DNA of 64,000 nucleotides from Schmidtea polychroa. Lineage: Eukaryota. The notes under the pieces were generated by a model. It had not been told where the DNA came from. It saw only the letters and a list, made by a program, of their open reading frames with translations, and did not search any database. Shown piece after piece: positions 40,466-64,000 of this stretch. The stretch's first letter is position 1. Each line of letters starts with the position of its first letter. The DNA lies in NCBI GenBank assembly GCA_044892525.1, contig CM097885.1, positions 107,880,001 to 107,944,000 of the forward strand, written 5' to 3'. The translations under genes and the position numbers were made by a program.

Positions 40466-42850
40466 TACATTAAATACATTCATTTTTAAAATTATTACTT
40501 TAACTTACTTAAGTTAAATTTTTACTTTACTTTTTTTTAAATTATTACATATTTACTTTAATTTCCCAAGCGACAATGTTTCTTCAAAATAAAGTTACAT
40601 TAATATACCTTTTAAAATTGCATAAACCTAATTTAAAGAACATTACCTTAATTTACTTTTTTAATTAATGTAAACTTTATTTCTCAGTTAATAGCACTTC
40701 TTAAAAATCTACTGCTTATTTAAAATATTACTTTAATTTTAAATACTTTATCGCTTCTAAAAATAACTTACCATAAATTACTGTACAAAATACTCCCTTA
40801 CTATAGTGCTTCACATTGACATAAAAAACATGTCGGACACGGCAGCAAAGGCTATTTTAACTGTATTTTATAAATTTATTTTTATTGTGAAAAAATTAGC
40901 TAGAGTTTTTTAATTAATGAAAAAATGTTTCATTAAAAAATTAGGCTTATTGTTTAAATAAAATATTTATTCATGAAAAAAAATTTATTTTAAGTTTTTC
41001 AAAAATTAAAAAAATTTTTTTTCATTTAAATATAAATTTTAATGTTTTTATTCAAGAAAAAATATTTAGAGTTTTTTCATTGAAAATTTATTTTTATGCT
41101 TTTCAAGGAGAAGTGGGACTTCAAAAAATATCTTCAAGCCAAATATCCCACGAGTCATAGTCTTACTAATACTTACTAATACTCTACTAACGTGATGCCA
41201 TTACGTACTAGACAGCTTGAAAAAAAATATTGATTTTCCATTGTTATATTTTAATTAATTTTTCACTTCAATTTATTTTTTGAATTATGTTGTATTTGTT
41301 TTGTTGGGCTAGAACTGATTTCTAGACCCAAACTTCTAATTATGACTGAAATGTGTAGGTACACAACATGCAAAAAGCAAAAAGTATAGCTAAATATTAA
41401 AAACTACACCAAATAAACAATATTAATTAAAGGAGAAAATAACAAAAAAATAAACACAGAAATTAAATAAAATTATACAAAAGCAAGAAGTTATGCAAAA
41501 TAGAACTCAAAAATAACCAAATAAACACAGAGTTACAAAAAACAGACTCGAATAACTTAAAAACGGTAAAAACAGTATAAAATTCCAGAAAAACCCAGAA
41601 CATTCCATAAAAATGGCGATGACCATCACAAAAGCCATCTAGAACAACAAAAGTTAGAGAAAATAAATAAATTAGTATTAAAAATAAAAAATCTTAAAAA
41701 GAAATTCATAAAACATCAGTTAAAATAAAAATAAAATTAAAATTAACATGGAATGTTCTGGAACCGTTCCAAATCCATCATGGACGTCAAATTAACGAAA
41801 AATAATTAAAAAATAAAAACAAAAATTATGGCACAAAAATTGCCATTAAAAATAGCAAAATCGCAAAATAGAAAATTCTGAAATAAAAAGAATTCGAGTT
41901 TGTTTTACTGAATCAATACATACACGTGTACAAAATAGGTATATATACCGACACGTTTCGGTCATAATTTAATCACTTTTATGCCAATTTTTGAGCGAAA
42001 TCTTGTCAACACAAATAGTGAGTATTGATGATTTATTTTTCATTTTTATTGTATCGATGATTTATTGAGGTTAAAATTAAAGTGATTTTATAATTTTTCT
42101 GTTGAAATTATTTTTAAGTGATGTACGAATGTTCAACGGCGTACCGGTATTCCTGCGTCGTTGTTCGGTCCTGCATCCAATTTATTAAAATTTATAGGAC
42201 ATGCAGACATGCATTATTAATATTATAATGATCGCATATTATATGAATCTTTTTGTTCGGGTCCTTCGGAGGTCGAACTACTTCATGGTCCGGCCATGGA
42301 GTTGGGTCGAGGAAACCCTCCGTCTGACTCTTCGTATCTATTAAAGGTCAGCCGTAAATGGTTGACTTAATATACAACAGTAAGGTTTGTTGAAGTGGTC
42401 ACAGTGGGGCTGCGGAGGCAATAACTCTTCCCGACTTTTATTTAATACACATGTAAAATCAACATTCAAAATCATGAACAACGTCTCTACACTAAGGTCC
42501 TAATTTGAGTAGAACTCATACCTAAATTTACACAATTCTGCAATCACATCAATGTAGCTGGTTGATCAATAATAGTAATTTCAAGTATACTTAGACAGAT
42601 GCCGAACTAGATTTTGTAATAGGAGTTTATTGTAAAGTAATGGAAATGAGAAAGATAGTCGGCATATGCATAAGTATGACTTAATCTAGATAGGCTAATT
42701 CAAAGTAAATGTAGGTATTCTAAATCCAATTCCCACTTTAAAATATGCACAAATGTATGAATACTTAGTTACCATTTTACAATTATTTGTAAGATCTTAG
42801 AGATAATGATATTGAGGTAGATCATTAATGGAAAATCCCGATTAGAAGTT

Positions 42851-46170: not shown

Positions 46171-49100
46171 ACCTGTATTCTGTTTTATATATTTCTGTAG
46201 TATGCCTTGTATATTTGTGTAGCATTAAAATAATAAATATTCTTGTGGTGTTAAAATAGTAATTTTTAGTATCAAATAATGTCTGATATATTTTATGATT
46301 GTGTTGGGCTAGAACTGATTTCTAGACCCAAACTTCTAATTGTGACTGGAATGCGTAGGTACACAGCATGCAAAAAGCAAAAAGTATAGTTAAATATTAA
46401 AAACTACACCAAATAACCAATGTAATTAAAGGAAAAAAACAACAAAAACCTAAAACACAGAAATTAAATAAAATTATACAAAAACAAGAAGTTATGCAAA
46501 ATCTAACTCAAAATAGCCAAATAAACACAGAGTTACAAAAAACAAACTCGAATAACTTAAAAGATGGTAAAAGTAGCAAAAAATTCCAGAAAAACCCAGA
46601 ACATTCCATAAAAATGGCGATGACCATCATAAAAGCTACCTTAAACAATAAAATTTAGAAAAATAAATAAATTAGTATTAAAAATAAAATTTCTTAAAAA
46701 GAAATTCGTAAAATATCAGTTAAAAATAAAAATTGAATTAAAAGTAATATGGAATGTTCTGGAACCGTTCCAAATCCATCATGGAGGAAAAATTAGCAAA
46801 AAATATTTAGGAAATAAAATTTTAAAAATAAAAATAAAAATTATGACGCAAAAATCGCCATTAAAAATATCAAAATTACAAAATAGAAACTTCTGGAATA
46901 AAAAGAATTCGAGTTTGTTTTAATGCATCAATACATACACGTGTACAAAATAGGTATATATACCGACGCATTTTGGTCACAATTTAATCTTTTTATGCCA
47001 AAATTTTTCTTGAAAAATTCGGAACCCACTAATAGTAAGGACGATTGATTAATTTTATCATGATTGTTATTTAATTTATAATTGTTATTTTATTATTTGT
47101 GATTTCATTTCATTATATTGATTAACTTTTTGTTTTTTTTGTTTAATCTTACTATTACGAAATAAGAGTGAACAGCATTGTGAACGGGTTATAGTCACTA
47201 TACTGGTCAGCCTTGTTTCCAATTTAAAGACTACATGCACCATTTTTGGGTCTACGACCCCACATGCATGAAATATAAACCCCTTTTATTAACCGGAGGT
47301 CGCCACGAACTAATGGTTCTAACCAGGAGTAGGGCGGTAAACCCATACCGGTAGTTGGCATAGTCATAGGGACTATGCGGACGAAATAAACTTCGGGAAA
47401 GTAATCGCGGGAAACATACTACAATAAGGCCTATCGTACCGTATCCAGTTGGGTCGGGAAAGTAGGAAAATTTTAATTAATTTGACTTTTCAGTAAACAA
47501 CATACCAAAAATCAACACTTAATTCTGATATAGGAAACAGACCACTAGGATCATCTAAACGGGAAATATCCCAGACTCAAATTAATATAGGGACTTTCGG
47601 TAGTCGGCTAATTGCTTAAACTCATATCTGATATTAACTAAATTTAGTATTGTTATTCATAATTTTGTTTAATGTATTTTGGTTCACGATCAATAAATAT
47701 TTTATAAATCCCTCAACAATTTTTATTGCCTTTATGCATATCGAAATGTAAATGATATAAAATCTTCAAAGAAAATTTTGAGTCCTAATAATACTATCCA
47801 TTTGGGTGCCCTTACTACTATCATGCTTGGTTTTCTAACATTACCTTAGTTAAGGGTATATCCTTGCCATATAATGGCATATATAAGTATATTAAACTTT
47901 CTTAATACATATTTACCTTATGTTTAGAAAAGGATAAATTATAGATTTTCTCAAATGACCCCGGCATATATATATACCACCCAAATGTCCTAAAGGAACC
48001 TATTTTAATGTATAGTTTTAGATAGTGATATGTTCAAATGATAATTTAGCAATTCCCATCCTTAGGATCCTTATTATTATTAATTATTATTATTAATTTC
48101 CAAAAATGTATTATCTTATGGAAGTATATAGGAGTATACAGTTCCCTTAAAGTATATTTAACTTATATTAGGTTCAGAGAAAGCTAAATCACAACTTTCT
48201 TAAATGACCCCCCCCCCCCGAAATATACCTTCATTAACCGTTGTGCCCTATTATTATTATTATTATCATCTCCATCATTCTTACTAATATTATTGTTACA
48301 ACGAGCATTATTATTAATATATTTCGTGTTAGTATTATTACTATTAATTTAATATTGCTATTACAATGAGTATTATTATTATTACTATTAATTTAATATT
48401 GTTATTACAATGGGTATTATTGTAAAAATATNNNNNNNNNNNNNNNNNNNNNNNNNNNNNNNNNNNNNNNNNNNNNNNNNNNNNNNNNNNNNNNNNNNNN
48501 NNNNNNNNNNNNNNNNNNNNNNNNNNNNNNNNNNNNNNNNNNNNNNNNNNNNNNNNNNNNNNNNNNNNNNNNTTATGGTTATTCTTATTAANNNNNNNNN
48601 NNNNNNNNNNNNNNNNNNNNNNNNNNNNNNNNNNNNNNNNNNNNNNNNNNNNNNNNNNNNNNNNNNNNNNNNNNNNNNNNNNNNNNNNNNNNNNNNNNNN
48701 NNNNNNNNNNNNNNNNNNNNNNNNNNNNNNNTTATCCTTATCATTAGTATTCTTATAATAATTATCATTATTATTACTGTTAGGATTATTATTGTAGTTA
48801 CTATCACTGTTGTCATTATTATTATTATTAGGATGATCATTATTAATGTTCTTGATATTACTGTTTTAGTGCTATTACCATTAACACTTCCACTCTTATC
48901 ATTGCCACTATTATTATCACTACCCTTGTCATTGCGTTGTTAATTAATTATTACAAATTTTTTTAATTAGCAATTTGGGATCCCCCTATGGCTGAAATTA
49001 ATCGCAAGAACCCTACCTTGTTACTATATAACCTACTTCAACAAATATACTGATTTCCCTAATGTTACTAAAAATAGAACCGATATTATCGATTTCCTGT

Positions 49101-50550: not shown

Positions 50551-51033
50551 ATGCCCAACACCAGGTCAAGGAATATGCAGGCCGGCCCCTCATCAGTCGA
50601 TTCGAGCCTAGAAATTACCGGCGAGGAAGCAGACGAAGCCGTCCGATTGAGAGAGGACGCAGAAATCGCCCGGCTACGGTCCAGGTGGGTCTGGTACAAG
50701 ATCCATGATTGGACTTACCAGAACGTGATCCCCGTAATTCCGAAGGTGGAGCCTTACCTCAACCACGCGTCGTTAGCCTTGATCGACGCTTTTGACGAAG
50801 TGACGGATGCGATAGACCGATTACACCGGCTCGAGAAAGCGACTCTGGCTGGCGAGGTAGAAGACTGCGACGGCTACGCTCGAGCCCAATGTCACCCGAA
50901 ACGGACCGCGGCTCTTCAGCGTGGATTAAAATACCCAAGACGGCCTCAACGAGGACCAGGACGACCAAGGACACGCGGACACACGCGAACGTCCACCCGC
51001 TCGACCAAGGAGAGCGCGGGATTTGGAGAGTAG
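50551..51033 (+). CDS. Cargo ORF-A2: 160 aa, acidic N-terminus, coiled coil, basic tail with a GRPR (AT-hook-like) motif
   Basis: Intact GC-rich ORF. Its ATG follows a TACAG acceptor plus 2 nt, exactly as in ORF-A1. Confidence 0.75.
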   Translation: MPNTRSRNMQAGPSSVDSSLEITGEEADEAVRLREDAEIARLRSRWVWYKIHDWTYQNVIPVIPKVEPYLNHASLALIDAFDEVTDAIDRLHRLEKATLAGEVEDCDGYARAQCHPKRTAALQRGLKYPRRPQRGPGRPRTRGHTRTSTRSTKESAGFGE

Positions 51034-51449
51034 GCGGAAAACTCGGGATCAAAACTAATCATTTTGTGCTGACCTCAGTGTCGGGTGTATTAGGTGATAT
51101 TATGTACTGGATTAAACCTCTTTAATCCAGGATTGAATAAAATATGTTAGGCCTTAACAGTTCATCATAATTATTTAATGTTTGTTTGTGTCTTGATGGT
51201 CGGTGACAACTTAATGGGGTGGATTGTTTGAATTTTTGCAATGTCCATGACGTGGAATATCGTCATTGTTGACTACACATTTCTATAGCGACAACAACCC
51301 TATAGGTTGAGTAAGATAAATAGGTCTCGGTCTTGGGGCGCGCGTAGCGAAGGACTACGACGAGGGGATTACTTTCTTTTAGCCTTAATGCCCATAATAA
51401 TGTTCGACCCTCGATGTCGATGTAAAATCATTGATCTTACCTTTGTTTA

Positions 51450-51914
51450 GTGCAGAAACTCTTGGAAGAGATGCGAGCTGATAGGGAACAGGCACAACGA
51501 CAGGTAGACGAATACCGGACCAAGTTGACCCGAGTCAAGACCCACTGTCGGAACTTCGAGTGCACCTGGTTCCCACCAGCGGAGATGAAGAAGAGGATGA
51601 AGTTGATCACCCAACTGCAACTTCAGAATGCTCAAGACCAGATTGAGTTGCGGGCCCTCCGCTTAAGGGTGAGGGAACTGGAAGCCAAGGTGCATCAACA
51701 GGAGCTGGAGCGAGAGGTCATTGCCAAGATCCGGCCTTTAGATGAGTTGCTCCATCGACCAAAAGAACCTGCCCCCACAATAGTAACCCCAAGGAAGAAG
51801 ATTCGGCCGGGAAAAGCGGCACGAGCGAGGATGAGGCAGGCCAGCCAGGCCCAATTAGCTCTCCATGCTACTGAATCAGAGGCTACGCCAAGAGAACCGA
51901 CCAGCACACGATAA
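51450..51914 (+). CDS. Cargo ORF-B2: coiled-coil protein with a basic C-terminal patch, unknown function
   Basis: Paralogue of 45685-46170 with amino acids conserved despite many synonymous differences; begins at a TTTAG/TG acceptor. Confidence 0.75.
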   Translation: MQKLLEEMRADREQAQRQVDEYRTKLTRVKTHCRNFECTWFPPAEMKKRMKLITQLQLQNAQDQIELRALRLRVRELEAKVHQQELEREVIAKIRPLDELLHRPKEPAPTIVTPRKKIRPGKAARARMRQASQAQLALHATESEATPREPTSTR

Positions 51915-56399: not shown

Positions 56400-56675
56400 G
56401 TAAATTCGAAATTGGTGCAAAACTATCAAAAATGAAAATAGTTAGTCACACCAAGTAAGGACTTGAAAGTCAGCACACAGTGTCATATCGTTCCCAATGA
56501 AATGGAAAAGGTGAAAGGTTCCATAGAATTCTTTAAGCAGTCATGCCATATTCATATAACGCCACCAGAAGTTGGCAAAATGAGCTTCCAACAATTTTAC
56601 TTGGACTTCGCAATGTCATCTATGATGAAATAAATTTGACACCAAGTCAAAGTGTTTTTGGAATTAATGGACGTC
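56400..56675 (+). pseudogene. Ty3/gypsy integrase fragment, truncated by the Polinton insertion
   Basis: SYRSQ*NGKGERFHRIL*...WQNELPTILLGLRNV...LTPSQSVFG is a classic gypsy integrase C-terminal core; the similarity stops abruptly at 56675. Confidence 0.8.
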
Positions 56676-56786
56676 AGTAGATGGATTGGGCACCGCTGGC
56701 ACAGGGCACCGCTAGCACAGTACCCCCCCTCCCCCCCCGTCGGTAAGATTTTCAAAAATATTCTAAGTCTAAAAGTACATTTTTTT

Positions 56787-57446
56787 TTCAAGGTCAAATT
56801 TAAACAAAGACATATGACTCATCAAGGTCATTGAAACAAAGACCATGAGTCATCCTATGACTCATAAAATTTTTCAAGGTCATTTAAACAAAGACCATGA
56901 CTCATCCGATGACTCATCAAGGGCATTTTCAAGGTCATATGACTCATAGTATGACTCAGATGACCTTGAAAATTTTTTTCAAGGTGATATGACTCATCCT
57001 ATAACTCATCAAGGTCATTTTCAAGGTCATATGACTCATAGTATGACTCATCTGACCTTGAAAAATTTTTTTTCAAGGTCATATGACTCATCCTATGACT
57101 CATCAAGGTCATTGAAACAAAGACCATGACTCATAGTGTGACTCACCAAGGTCATTTTCAAGGTCATATGACTCATCAAGGTCATTTTCAAGGTCATATG
57201 ACTCATAGTATGACTCATTTGACCTTGGAAATTTTTTTTTCAAGGTCATATGACTCATCCTATGACTCGTCAAGGTCATTCTCAAGGTCATATGACTCAT
57301 CCGATGACTCATCAAAATTTTCAAGGTCATTTTCAAGGTCATCTGAGTCATCCTATGACTCATCAAGGTCATTTTCAAGGTCACATGACTCATCCAAGGT
57401 CATTCCCAAGGTCATATGAGTCATCGCGATGACTCATCAAGGTCAT
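56787..57446. repeat. Polinton subterminal tandem/inverted repeat array built from TGA(C/G)TCA and (T/C)CAAGGTCA
   Basis: About 25 copies of each motif by manual count, some inverted to form hairpins (TGACCTTGAAAAA..TTTTCAAGGTCA). Confidence 0.9.
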
Positions 57447-57601
57447 ATTATTATTTTTAAAAAATATTATTATTTTTATTATTATTTTTAAAAATATTAT
57501 TATTTTATTTTTAATTTTTTCAAAGTTCCCGCCAACGAAAATTAATAATCGATAGCTCATTTTAAAGCTCAATCCAAGACCTTTCGAATGAGCCATATAT
57601 C

Positions 57602-57670
<69 letters not shown>

Positions 57671-57795
57671 GTATTAATCTATATACACCGAGTCTATATA
57701 CTCTGAGTCTATCCGACAAAATATTTTGTCCCCCTATGGGTAATGCTCACAAGGGTACTGGTCACGCTCAACAAATCAACAAAACATACATTTAT

Positions 57796-58296
57796 TTAAA
57801 CAATAAAATAATGTAAAATTAACAAAGGTAAACTAAATATTGATGCACTTCTATTCGCAGCATTATTGTTAGAAATTGGTAACGTTGAATTGATTTTCAG
57901 ATATTCTATTGATCCTTTGATTGTTTGAATTTCTCTTAATAATAATTCAATCTTTTTTAACAAATAATCATGCTTCTTATCAATAATCTTCATATTCTTT
58001 TTATTTTCAGTAATAGAGTTATTGAAAACCTCAATATGATCAATCAATTTAATTTTTATATTTTGTATATATTCAAATGTTAGTTCATAACTGTTTTCTA
58101 AATTCTCCAATCTTTGAGATATTCTTTTTCCTGGATGCTTTGACCATTTTGGTTTATCGAGAATATATAAAATATCCATCAACTTGGCTGTATTCGGACA
58201 AACACATATTGATTTATTAAAAGACTCCACCGTTATTGTTGTATTGTGTGAGCACACACTCGTTATAATAATTAGCAATATGAATAGAGTTTTCAT
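57796..58296 (-). CDS. Polinton accessory protein: signal peptide, coiled coil, C-terminal hydrophobic (GPI-signal-like) tail, 166 aa
   Basis: MKTLFILLIIITSVCS signal peptide; five N-x-S/T sequons; heptad-rich middle; NNNAANRSASIFSLPLLILHYFIV end; TATAAAT upstream. Confidence 0.7.
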   Translation of the reverse strand: MKTLFILLIIITSVCSHNTTITVESFNKSICVCPNTAKLMDILYILDKPKWSKHPGKRISQRLENLENSYELTFEYIQNIKIKLIDHIEVFNNSITENKKNMKIIDKKHDYLLKKIELLLREIQTIKGSIEYLKINSTLPISNNNAANRSASIFSLPLLILHYFIV

Positions 58297-58401: not shown

Positions 58402-58922
58402 ATGTCTCAATTTATGGAAAATCTTTTAAGAGAACTCGTCAACAGGAATATTATGGAAAGCCTATGTTTCCTGGTCGATCGGACCGAAAAGATTATAGAA
58501 GGTAATCACATTGATTATGACGATGTGATCAATTCTGATTGTCTCGAAACCAAAAAATTCTATTTTAATAGAATTTTTAACTGTCTATGCGACGATCAGA
58601 TGAAGTGGACCCGAATACTAGTAGGGTTCGCTTATATGAAAATAATAATCCAAAGAAGTCTATGGGACTCAGAGCACTATTATCAGTGGTCTCAAGAAGT
58701 AATACTTTTATAATTTATATTTTATTAATATTTATTTTCTAGATAATCAAGTCAAAGTTTCAACCATGGATTGAAGCCAATGGCGGATGGGGAGTACTCA
58801 ATCAACTCGCCAGAAATGCAAAAGAAATAGACGATCAGAAAAGAAAATTTAAAAACTATGTAAAACTTGCAACAGGTGTTGCTATTTTGTATATTTTAAC
58901 CAGATTTTTAAATAAAAATTAA
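58402..58922 (+). CDS. Bcl-2 family protein, 158 aa, two exons (58402-58698, 58743-58922; 44-nt intron)
   Basis: BH1-like LCDDQMKWTRILVGFAY. Splicing GTAATA...TTCTAG (phase 0) gives WSQEIIKSKFQPWIEANGGW, aligning without gaps to Bcl-xL WMATYLNDHLEPWIQENGGW. C-terminal tail anchor LATGVAILYILTRFLNKN. Confidence 0.88.
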
Positions 58923-59005: not shown

Positions 59006-59383
59006 TTAATTAACACATTCGCAGTCGTCATCTCCACATTTCATTATATTTTCAACGACATGATCAATACAATCATTCGTAATATTATCTTTAGATTCAT
59101 CTTTAGGTTCCTCTATAGGTTCCTCTATAGGTTCATAGATTTCCTCTTGAGTTTCTTCCTCATCAATTTCTTGAGTTTCTTCCTCATCATCAAATCCTGT
59201 ATCTTGACTCTCAACTAACCAGCCGATATTTAAGGCATTTGTAATAGATAATATATCCTCCATTTTCACACCAGATATTTCTGCTAACTTTTCCAACAAA
59301 AAGTTGATTAAAAATTCTAAATAATAAATAATTCGGTAATTAATTAATTAATCATGTTAACCTTTTTCTACAGTCATTTTCAT
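59006..59383 (-). CDS. Small acidic Polinton protein, probably two exons (45-nt intron 59317-59361)
   Basis: The ORF lacks an ATG until GTTAAC...TTTAG is spliced, giving MKMTVEKEFLINFLLEKLAEISG...; Glu/Asp-rich repeats; Cys-containing C-terminus. Confidence 0.55.
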
Positions 59384-59511
59384 CACTTTAAAACTAAATT
59401 ATAAGTTTGTTTATAGATTTTCTTTGTTAAATTTGCATGTCATTTGCATTTATGTTGCAATTAATAAAGAGAAAAAAACAAATCTGACTAATACATTTAT
59501 TAAATATAACA

Positions 59512-59922
59512 TTAAAATATTTGTGAAAGTCTAGCAGACATAATTTTCCAAATAGGAGAATATACATCATTATTATCAACTTTATATCCCTGGATTGCAA
59601 TTGTTATATACCAATTTTCATTTTCTTTGAAAGCGATTTCATCAAAGGAATCATAAAATCTTGCATATTTATTGTTGAACCATGCATGTTGATTACACGA
59701 TAGATTCGAATCTATCCGTTTAAAAACATCATCAATAGTTTTGACATCAATCATTGAAAGCGTGCCGGATAAGAATTCAAATTTAGTTGGAATTAGCTTG
59801 ACTGGTGCAACCAATTTCATATTGATTTCTTCTTTCAAAAAATACATTTTGTAGTTGTGGAACATTTGAACTGGTTGTACCATTTCTTTAGGTTTTTCGG
59901 TGCTTGAAATTTTCTTGGTCAT
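59512..59922 (-). CDS. Polinton hypothetical protein, 136 aa (beta-rich C-terminus)
   Basis: ATG-initiated ORF with TATAAAAA about 40 nt upstream and CCAAT at about 59983; no confident family. Confidence 0.65.
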   Translation of the reverse strand: MTKKISSTEKPKEMVQPVQMFHNYKMYFLKEEINMKLVAPVKLIPTKFEFLSGTLSMIDVKTIDDVFKRIDSNLSCNQHAWFNNKYARFYDSFDEIAFKENENWYITIAIQGYKVDNNDVYSPIWKIMSARLSQIF

Positions 59923-60765: not shown

Positions 60766-61203
60766 TTAGAAATCGACCAATGAAATTATCTCATTTCGAA
60801 CATTGTCAACAAATTCTCTATACTCCAAATTTCTCAACCCCAACATGACAACCTTTCCACTAGCAAACACGTTGACACATATAGGGTTATATTTTAATAG
60901 TCTTAGTGCCGGAAACAATTCCGGTTCAAACATACAATCACATTTTTTCGACATGTTATATAGATTGATACTATGTCCCATATCCATAGTAACGGTAATT
61001 GATTGGATTTTAATATTATTTATTCGATATTGTAATTTATTAATATCCAAAGGTTTCTTACATCCCATGATTCTGCATTTACCAGTCTTGAAAAATATTA
61101 TCGGATATTTCCCACTTCTATCGATAATTTGCTGGGGTTTCCCTGGTGGGAACCTCATATTCGATACATCAAAATTTCCTCGATAATTTATATTTGCTAA
61201 CAT
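60766..61203 (-). CDS. Compact TATA-binding-protein-like protein, 145 aa
   Basis: Both TBP repeats are recognisable: LANINYRGNF...IIFFKTGKCRIMG and IQSITVTMD...FEPELFPALRL...VNVFASGKVVMLG. Confidence 0.85.
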   Translation of the reverse strand: MLANINYRGNFDVSNMRFPPGKPQQIIDRSGKYPIIFFKTGKCRIMGCKKPLDINKLQYRINNIKIQSITVTMDMGHSINLYNMSKKCDCMFEPELFPALRLLKYNPICVNVFASGKVVMLGLRNLEYREFVDNVRNEIISLVDF

Positions 61204-61302: not shown

Positions 61303-61929
61303 ATGGAATTAAGAAATGATGCTGTATACCAAATCGTTGGTCCGAGTGGTAGTGGAAAAACATTATTTGTTTGTAAATTACTAAAATCCAATTTATTCAA
61401 ATCAAAATTCAACAGGATTTATTGGCATAGGGGTGCTGATGAAGAACATGGATTAACTCAATCAAGTTTCTGTAAATTAAAAAACATGAAAATAGTAAAG
61501 GGATTCGATAAAAACTGGTCCAGCCGATTAAAGAAAGGCGATGTCATTATTATCGATGATTTGTATCAAGAAGCTAATAAAGAAAAAGATTTTAATAATT
61601 TATTTACAAAGATTAGCAGACATGTCGGTGTAACAGTTATTTTCATAACTCAAAATCTATTTCATCAAGGTGGGGCACATCGAACACGTAATTTAAATGT
61701 ACAATATTTAGTCATTTTCAAGAATCCTAGAGATGCAACAGTGATTGATTTTCTTGCACGTCAAGCATACCCTAACAATCGTAATTTTCTTATCAGTGCA
61801 TTTCAAGATGCTACAAAAATACCTCATGGATATATATTTCTTGATTTCACACAACAATGTCCCGATGATTTACGTGTAAAAACAGATATTTTCAACCCAA
61901 AAGGTGCCATGGTTTATAAACAAAGTTGA
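61303..61929 (+). CDS. Polinton packaging ATPase (A32/FtsK-HerA-like), 208 aa
   Basis: Walker A GPSGSGKT, Walker B VIIIDD, and SRH, ITQ and FKNPRD motifs typical of Polinton ATPases. Confidence 0.92.
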   Translation: MELRNDAVYQIVGPSGSGKTLFVCKLLKSNLFKSKFNRIYWHRGADEEHGLTQSSFCKLKNMKIVKGFDKNWSSRLKKGDVIIIDDLYQEANKEKDFNNLFTKISRHVGVTVIFITQNLFHQGGAHRTRNLNVQYLVIFKNPRDATVIDFLARQAYPNNRNFLISAFQDATKIPHGYIFLDFTQQCPDDLRVKTDIFNPKGAMVYKQS

Positions 61930-62484: not shown

Positions 62485-62712
62485 ATGGGTGCTAATCCTT
62501 CATTGCCCGACATTAAATTTAATTTTAAATCTTCTTGTTGTAATGGAGAAGATTTGGACGAACCCAGAAGACGAAGCCGGTTTCGGTGGAGTGGCAAAAT
62601 TAAACAAAAGAGTTCCGAATTCGAAAAAAGAAACCCAGAAGTGGTTATCAGATCAGCTTGCGTACAGTTTGAACAAACCAATGCGGAAAAGATTTCCAAC
62701 AAGAGCGTATAA
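62485..62712 (+). CDS. Candidate small ORF with an N-myristoylation signal, overlapping the integrase start in another frame, 75 aa
   Basis: ACAATGG start context; MGANPS (MGxxxS), a CC pair and a basic cluster; fills the gap between the core-protein stop and the integrase ATG. Confidence 0.45.
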   Translation: MGANPSLPDIKFNFKSSCCNGEDLDEPRRRSRFRWSGKIKQKSSEFEKRNPEVVIRSACVQFEQTNAEKISNKSV

Positions 62713-62930
62713 AACATTTGGTATTGACGATTTATGGCAAATGGATTTGATGGAGATGATACCATATTCGAAAATTAACAATGGGAATAAATATATTTTA
62801 ACATGTATTAATGTATACAGCAGGTTTGCACGAGCAATACCAGTCAAGGCAAAATCTGCAGAAGAAATGTCCAAGGCAATTAATATTTTATTTAAAGATG
62901 GACATCCTAATAATTTGCAAACAGATTTAG

Positions 62931-63001
<71 letters not shown>

Positions 63002-63631
63002 TTAGGTAAAGAATTCTACAATAGCAAAGTTAAGCAAATCCTCGATAAACTGAAAATAAATCACTACTCGGTACATTCTCAATACAAAGCTGCCCATGTT
63101 GAAAGATTTAATCGAACATTGAGAGATAGATTAAAGAAATTGTTCGTGCATCAAGGTAATAAAAAATGGGTAAATGCTTTACCGAAAATAATAACAAGTT
63201 ATAATCATTCATCACATCGAGGACTGAATGGATTGAGACCGGTTGATATTACATCAAAAACACCATTATCTAAAAAATCTGTAAAAATTGCAAAACCTAA
63301 ATATAAAGTCGGTGACCATGTTAGAATTAGTAAAATTAGTGCATCACCATTTATTAAAAATTTTGATACAAATTGGAGTGATGAAGTCTTTGTAATTTCA
63401 AAAATAAATACTAAACAGAATCCTGTAATGTATGTCATCAAAGACAATGATAATAATATTGTACAGGGGAAATTTTATGAGCAGAAATTACAAGTCATTC
63501 CTCCCCCAAAAGTATTTAGAATTCAAAAAATATTGAAAACTAAAAAGGTCGGTAAGGATAAACAATACTATATCAAATGGCACGGTTATCAAAACCCGTC
63601 ATGGATATCGTCAAAAGACCTAGTAAAATGA
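62543..63631 (+). CDS. Polinton retroviral-type DDE integrase with a C-terminal chromodomain; 337 aa after removing the 75-nt intron 62931-63005
   Basis: WQMD, QTDLG/KEF and VERFNRTL catalytic motifs; chromo-like FRIQKIL...YYIKWHGY...SW. Likely start ATG is 62543 (MEKIW). Confidence 0.92.
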
Positions 63632-64000
63632 ATTTTTATATTATTTTACCTAGCAATAGCTGTCCACTTATTCATCCAGATAATAAAGCCAGCAAATTCA
63701 GGGTCAATCTTCAAAATCCGATATATTTGGATAATAGCTGGGAAGTTGCTCTGTTGGATTTTACATTTGTATACCAAGCCTTTCCATTTTATAGTAAGGC
63801 TAAAATTGGATACAAAAAGAATGAGTGGCCGGATAGATTATTGTCTATGATCATTGATAATGCAGATGATGAAGTTCGGTTGTCTAACTCAACTGATCCA
63901 GCTGTGAAAATGTATATTAACCATTCATATATAGTAGTTGAATGTAAACATTATCCTTTTACTGTAAAATTTGATAGTTTGGAAATGGCAAAACGATTGG
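63628..64000 (+). CDS. Polinton minor capsid protein (penton), N-terminal part; runs off the window
   Basis: ATGA overlap with the integrase stop; MNFYIILPSNS...HPDN..SKFRVNL..PIYL..SWEVAL is the typical Polinton penton N-terminus; frame open to the window end. Confidence 0.85.
   Translation, partial: MNFYIILPSNSCPLIHPDNKASKFRVNLQNPIYLDNSWEVALLDFTFVYQAFPFYSKAKIGYKKNEWPDRLLSMIIDNADDEVRLSNSTDPAVKMYINHSYIVVECKHYPFTVKFDSLEMAKRL

Follow-up and report, generated by a model that had tools for sequence, protein, structure and literature searches.

The window, by which we mean the whole 64,000-nucleotide stretch of Schmidtea polychroa DNA that was analysed, carries near its right end a Polinton/Maverick element of 18,814 bp with AG...CT ends. 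The element starts at nucleotide 56676 and ends beyond the window. It is preceded by a 6-bp TSD (56670..56675), and the identical hexamer was found after the right end (L032:1490-1495). The left TIR (56676..58222) is about 1.55 kb long (1.55-1.7 kb for the TIRs of the element) and approximately 92% identical to the right TIR, most of the differences residing in internal repeat arrays. Upstream of the Polinton, two repeats spaced 5 kb apart (41299-42013 and 46299-47028; 83-89% identical) and the GC-richer coiled-coil ORFs at 50551-51914 represent an unrelated mobile element.

Among the enzymes encoded by the element are a packaging ATPase (61303..61929, plus strand; Pox_A32, E-value=3.6e-7, over the cut-off) and a retroviral-type integrase with a chromodomain (62543..63631, plus strand), the latter with an rve match under the cut-off (E-value=1.1e-5) and a Chromo match with an E-value of 0.0013. 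The integrase ORF includes an ATT microsatellite (62930-63005) which is translated as a poly-Ile run, differs in length among copies and could be part of a short intron. The next plus-strand ORF starts at 63577 and runs past the window (63577..64000); it has no family match and is a putative minor capsid protein by position only. Beyond the window lie a 407-aa capsid-like ORF, a C5 protease (Peptidase_C5, over the Pfam cut-off), a 1130-aa protein-primed-type PolB and the right TIR. The 1130-aa ORF possesses the family-B polymerase motifs A, B and C; it gave no Pfam PolB match and no PDB match. The 407-aa ORF has no Pfam match either. Among its Atlas look-alikes, at 0.98, PF21738 is present in 15-24% of members, with a recognition value under the mark, and its capsid-like nature is offered as a lead only.

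The element also contains several accessory genes. A 166-aa ORF (57796..58296, minus strand), situated mostly within the TIR, belongs to no confident family and is a conserved neighbour of the Bcl-2-like gene described below in several subfamilies, while a 136-aa ORF (59512..59922, minus strand) adjoins that gene in intron-bearing and intronless lineages alike. The minus-strand ORF at 60766..61203 specifies a miniature TATA-binding-protein-like product of 145 aa (PF00352, E-value=1.6e-15), and is probably a second host-derived gene of this Polinton; a 54% identical ORF occurs in the sister lineage D. Between the protease and PolB there is an acidic accessory gene (L031:3111-3970) with four GT-AG intron-like segments of 43-50 nt, which suggests that short introns are usual for this Polinton family. 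Another minus-strand accessory gene (about 59030-59385) looked spliced by eye; pattern searches returned no intron in it.

The gene of principal interest begins approximately 180 bp interior to the left TIR, on the plus strand. Its exon 1 (58402..58698; 99 codons, ATG at 58402) codes for N-terminal helices, a helix at the BH3 position (LCFLVD, residues 21-26) and BH1 (KWTR, residues 68-71, 58603-58614). Exon 2 (58743..58922; 59 codons and the stop at 58920-58922) codes for BH2 (PWIEANGGW, 58764-58790), a linker and a tail whose hydrophobic stretch (58860-58910) is predicted to be a membrane anchor. The two are separated by a putative phase 0 GT-AG intron of 44 nt (58699..58742; GT at 58699-58700, AG at 58741-58742). 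An earlier note on this DNA had remarked that the ORF track shows a 103-aa frame only, and that removal of the 44-nt segment yields a 158-aa protein with BH1, BH2 and a C-terminal membrane anchor. Each of these points was borne out: the frame without splicing is 103 aa, the predicted spliced product is 158 aa, and both motifs and the hydrophobic tail are as described. Exon 1 aligned without gaps to residues 37-126 of the Schmidtea mediterranea bcl2-1 protein (P0002; 24% identity, E-value=5e-9), and exon 2, again without gaps, to residues 127-182 (29% identity, E-value=1e-10). Since these alignments abut (126/127), the exon boundary is exact to the residue. When 73 frame-compatible GT-AG pairs were compared, 58699/58742 gave the top score against both host-type proteins. 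The tail has a 17-residue mean hydropathy of 1.62 and is aligned to the host tail (1.39).

PF00452 was the sole Pfam match of either exon searched alone (exon 1, model 12-66, E-value=0.01; exon 2, model 86-100, E-value=0.34); the two matches are collinear and under the cut-off. With a profile of our own, built from 127 cellular Bcl-2-family proteins, the two exons joined with X at the junction scored 31.6 bits, compared to 12.4 bits for the unspliced 103 aa and no more than 7.5 bits for shuffled sequences (285 of 300 shuffles reported), in agreement with the earlier assignment to the Bcl-2 family. PDB sequence matches for exon 2 were nearly all to Bcl-xL and weak, the best having an E-value of 0.074.

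The Bcl-2-like gene is a standard component of a high-copy Polinton family that has been spreading recently, with at least 150 near-identical copies, and not a one-off fragment, a possibility that the earlier note had raised. The best 40 of 1,653 candidate matches all span the full 701 bases at 99-100%, and the best 150 of 2,376 candidates all reach 96% identity or more in exon 1, 149 of them lacking a stop; both lists hold the best-scoring matches and are thus biased to intact copies. At each of ten further loci the gene occupies the same element position, and five of these copies have matching TSDs at both ends, each a different sequence. Four of the ten, which had been chosen as close opposite-strand pairs, possess a mirrored left arm with the gene in both arms. 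Such mirrored-arm elements (G000:C2:98812001-98832000, C1:29601501-29619000, C1:625501-645500 and C1:90712501-90731000, L162-L169; also L121-L123) have inverted repeats of approximately 1.6-6.8 kb and a Bcl-2-like gene per arm; two have their own TSDs and no PolB within the fetched stretch, and so appear to be mobilised in trans. Many older copies are broken, loss of the donor site being among the defects, which suggests that genomic copies decay after insertion. A search of IMG/VR revealed no relative.

Sister lineages were collected by searching the genome with Pfam (150 of 909 matches scored) and with the host gene as query (150 of 2,340 scored). In lineages B, C, F, H and K, GT...AG falls between the same two codons as in the window gene, and among the intron-bearing lineages exon 1 identity to the window falls from 87% to 34-46%. 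The introns range from 30 to 60 nt, a single copy having one of 30 nt only; some are divisible by three and contain a stop, others are not divisible by three. Within subfamily C (L048-L050, L061, L062, L096, L110) the intron holds an ATT repeat and varies from 42 to 60 nt in steps of three. Lineages D and E are intronless, with a reading frame that continues through the intron site. Lineage D elements are about 59-61% identical to the window element in PolB and 77-78% in the capsid, the D protein is some 19-25% identical to window exon 1, and the Bcl-2-like gene lies on opposite sides of the 136-aa neighbour in lineages A and D. Sister copies exceed the PF00452 cut-off (31.4 bits) at 33.4-34.5 bits with the intron read through, and intronless D does so at 32.7 bits. 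Searches of protein databases with exon 1 and lineage D found no spliced record, and a profile search of 1.84 billion representatives added one further Polinton-type fragment (P0008) among the top matches examined (14 of 150 as sequences). Designed PPR proteins, which topped one profile search, were rejected as repeat artefacts, no single stretch of them passing.

When subfamilies are compared, each exon shows purifying selection. For exon 1, dN/dS was 0.05-0.17 in the six of nine pairs that could be estimated (three were saturated), and for exon 2 it was 0.07-0.39 in all nine pairs, with an upper bootstrap bound of at most 0.83; one within-subfamily pair gave about 0.8. Purifying selection on an exon without its own start argues for splicing of the 44-nt segment, and the simplest reading of the intron is that it was gained later, in one branch.

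As judged by sequence comparison, the closest kin of the Polinton gene is the host bcl2-1 orthologue (G000:C1:268544056-268547579), which is likely to have been its donor. This host gene is single-copy and adjoins a cellular peptidase gene, and no Polinton gene was found within 10 kb of it. In its two exons it has 86-91% identity to P0002, the 184-aa S. mediterranea 'bcl2-like protein' (ACW83059.1 / C9WPR4). The original bcl2-1 study is said to be that of Pellettieri et al. in 2010. ACW83059.1 corresponds to FJ807655.1, which appears as 'bcl2-1' in supplement file 2 of PMC4993586, and knock-down of bcl2-1 in S. mediterranea is described as leading to systemic cell death and lysis (PMC6970515, PMC4993586). 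Out of nine host and retroelement rows, host bcl2-1 was the best match for all eight Polinton rows, at 58-89 bits versus at most 37. The Trp of BH1 and that of BH2 are 39 residues apart in the window gene, P0002 and P0010, and 38 in lineage D, as against 44 in 101 of the 127 cellular proteins and in both host paralogues measured; the Polinton genes and bcl2-1 thus have a five-residue shortening in common. These two observations support the proposal of the earlier note that the Polinton carries a captured host apoptosis regulator.

The BH1 motif reads KWTR in the window gene, RWSR in host bcl2-1, KWSQ in P0010 and CWSK in lineage D, whereas 82 of the 127 cellular proteins have NWGR. The departure of BH1 from NWGR to which the earlier note drew attention is therefore real; given the host RWSR, it is for the most part a legacy of the host gene and not something that the virus-like element invented. 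The BH3 motif follows the pattern LxxxGD. In the window sequence LCFLVD the Leu and Asp are in register and Val occupies the small-residue position, the host having LxxxVE. Elsewhere in the genome, canonical NWGR is found in a host gene of the Bcl-2 family that is present in at least seven tandem segmental copies (G000:C4:89.9-90.8 Mb; L033-L039), beside exons which by eye are rhomboid-like and cytochrome-P450-like.

Host bcl2-1 has an intron of about 3 kb directly after GGW, which is the ancestral position (PMC8998228). The Polinton genes are without this intron and have retained the exon of the host gene that follows it, a combination that fits capture through mRNA, and we infer that the gene was captured through RNA. 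Phylogenetic analysis, which the earlier note had named as a check, likewise sides with bcl2-1: in a tree of 17 rows (without Burro and one near-copy) the Polinton genes and bcl2-1 came together at 77/94, which is moderate support, and six intron-bearing rows grouped at 82/91. In another tree, of 19 rows, D and E joined host bcl2-1 at 88/87. The trees did not recover monophyly of the Polinton genes, and tests did not reject it (p-AU 0.10 and 0.40), so that both one capture and two are accommodated. Most host paralogues in these trees are represented by a fragment of one exon, and some members of the host set may be missing.

Structure models were made for the natural intronless lineage D protein using a 17-row alignment (pLDDT 67, pTM 0.62); the single-sequence fold, with a pLDDT of 55, was too poor for use. 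Every match listed for the model against the PDB was Bcl-xL or Bcl-2 (best E-value=4.7e-4, TM 0.57), and the top matches in a viral structure library were vBcl-2s. Paired with a BH3 helix taken from a Bax/Bak-like gene of the host, D scored 0.76, versus 0.08 for the best control. In the complex the BH3 leucine sits in the groove, the runs share at least 90% of contacts and the pLDDT of the partner is at least 64. The docking mark is one reached by 51 of 78 solved pairs and 2 of 108 mismatched pairs. The lineage D protein is thus predicted by modelling to fold like Bcl-xL and to bind a BH3 helix, and its pass may be due to resemblance to Bcl-xL:BH3 complexes of solved structure. Of all lineages, that of the window has diverged furthest from host bcl2-1 (24-29% identity), and it has Thr at the BH1 glycine; in mouse Boo, Ser at this position reportedly alters BH3 selectivity (PMC8998228).

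Taken together, we regard it as fairly probable that the window gene specifies a tail-anchored pro-survival protein which holds Bax/Bak-type effectors in check where the element is active. According to this proposal, bcl2-1 mRNA would have been captured into a Polinton with loss of the host GGW intron, and a new short intron would later have been gained in one Polinton branch. The hydrophobic tail would direct the protein to the mitochondrial outer membrane, where its groove would bind the BH3 of Bax/Bak-type effectors and block killing, so that cells would be protected while the element replicates or integrates. Polintons of S. mediterranea are repressed piRNA targets, which weighs against the proposal; they become de-silenced during differentiation (PMC8532177), and this makes differentiating cells a plausible identity for those in which the element is active. 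Perhaps, and this is speculation that we hold to be doubtful, hundreds of near-identical Polinton copies supply a mimic of the essential bcl2-1, raise the death threshold in differentiating cells and may shape tissue turnover, the unrelated Polinton and Burro elements converging on the same switch.

Several other readings must be weighed against this one. The gene could be real and selected with its fold reused for immune signalling, mitochondrial dynamics, autophagy or off-groove effector binding, and some poxviral Bcl-2-fold proteins do bind effectors outside the groove or perform other jobs. The long branch separating it from the host gene, the Thr at the BH1 glycine, the lack of an intact BH3 and the fact that the fold and docking models concern lineage D and not the window protein are all compatible with such reuse. 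Nevertheless, BH2, the Trp and Arg of BH1 and the tail anchor are retained, the host donor with a similar BH1 is pro-survival in vivo, and the sister protein D is predicted to hold a BH3 helix in the usual groove; we consider reuse unlikely, while giving it real weight. A killing role for the protein, or one directed against host bcl2-1, for example in late particle release, is much less probable. Multi-domain Bcl-2 folds do include killers and the profile matches include Bak, but the donor is pro-survival, LCFLVD is not the Gly/Ala-Asp BH3 of a killer, the lineage D structure matches are Bcl-xL and Bcl-2, and hundreds of integrated killer copies would presumably be costly.

Two further alternatives concern the history and structure of the gene. 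Could host bcl2-1 instead be a domesticated Polinton gene? The position of the root within the Polinton and bcl2-1 group is left undecided by the trees, and the union of D and E with the host gene in one of them would suit this direction. Against it, the ancestral GGW intron would have to have been regained at the same site in the host, the host gene is single-copy beside its peptidase neighbour and at least 10 kb from any Polinton gene, and orthologues exist elsewhere (P0002, P0010), all of which renders the reversed direction very improbable. We assign still less credence to the proposal that no splicing takes place, the product being the 103-aa read-through and the downstream BH2 a relic. 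The database entries (P0001, P0003-P0006, P0008) are indeed all unspliced gene calls, and the 30-nt intron in one copy may be too short. However, these calls are probably intron-blind predictions on short contigs, exon 2 is under purifying selection in nine of nine pairs even though it has no start, and GT...AG recurs between the same codons even where exon 1 identity is down to 34-46%, the intron lengths including multiples of three as well as other values. The reading of a spliced, host-derived, pro-survival gene is hence the one that we carry forward.

The likely donor is a validated essential pro-survival gene in a genus with routine RNAi and cell-death assays, and selection has maintained the Polinton-borne gene across many lineages of the element. 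It therefore becomes testable whether animal Polintons, as viruses do, must stop host-cell death. The locus also offers what would be a clean case of RNA capture in a virus-like element, with an intron gained afterwards, and, if the mimic reading is true, the element protects just those cells in which it is being copied.

Bcl2 cargo in adintoviruses and Polintons has already been published: homologues of Bcl2 and IAP were observed in adintoviruses (Starrett et al. 2021, PMC8502044), and according to a 2024 preprint anti-apoptotic or oncogene-like genes appear to be present in most of the adintoviruses associated with mammals (PMC11071296). The likeness of the former to our element consists in a Bcl-2 accessory gene accompanied by PolB, integrase, ATPase, protease and capsid genes. 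In the part of the figure text of the PMC8502044 supplement that was covered, Bcl2 labels stand on three map rows, from fish and nematode maps, and the names Schmidtea, planarian and Dugesia were not found. The sections of PMC8502044 consulted give no donor, intron or selection analysis, unlike the present account of the window gene. The literature searched, which was mostly without subscription journals, revealed no description of a Bcl-2 gene on a planarian Polinton or of the donor of such a gene. New here are the tracing of the likely donor, bcl2-1, the intron history and the inheritance of BH1.

With S. mediterranea bcl2-1 the window gene has in common 146 gap-free residues, the five-residue deletion, a non-NWGR BH1 and the layout of the tail. 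It differs in sequence (24-29% identity), in its shorter N-terminus (158 versus 184 aa), in having no GGW intron and a new intron 15 codons upstream, and in existing as hundreds of mobile copies versus one. Burro elements, which are giant LTR retroelements of planarians, have also been described as having a BCL2-like motif (PMC6431247), so that Bcl-2-like domains occur in two classes of planarian mobile element. In contrast to the Polinton gene, the Burro domain lies within a retroelement polyprotein and has no intron; it matches the Polinton and host genes weakly (about 28-31 bits), and a shared ancestry was neither demonstrated nor rejected (p-AU 0.097). A preprint reportedly deals with an anti-apoptotic role of Burro1. 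Burro-like elements of this genome contain dozens of Bcl-2-like domains in ORFs of up to approximately 3,050 aa, which adjoin a viral fusion glycoprotein domain, e.g. at C1:113809943 (L112), L054 and L093. Finally, the Bcl-2 mimics of viruses (adenovirus E1B-19K, gammaherpesvirus vBcl-2, ASFV A179L and iridovirus Bcl-2) share, to judge from the lineage D model, the same fold and presumably the same purpose. They are, however, independent captures, whereas the Polinton gene is inherited with the host, present in hundreds of integrated copies and, as we infer, spliced.
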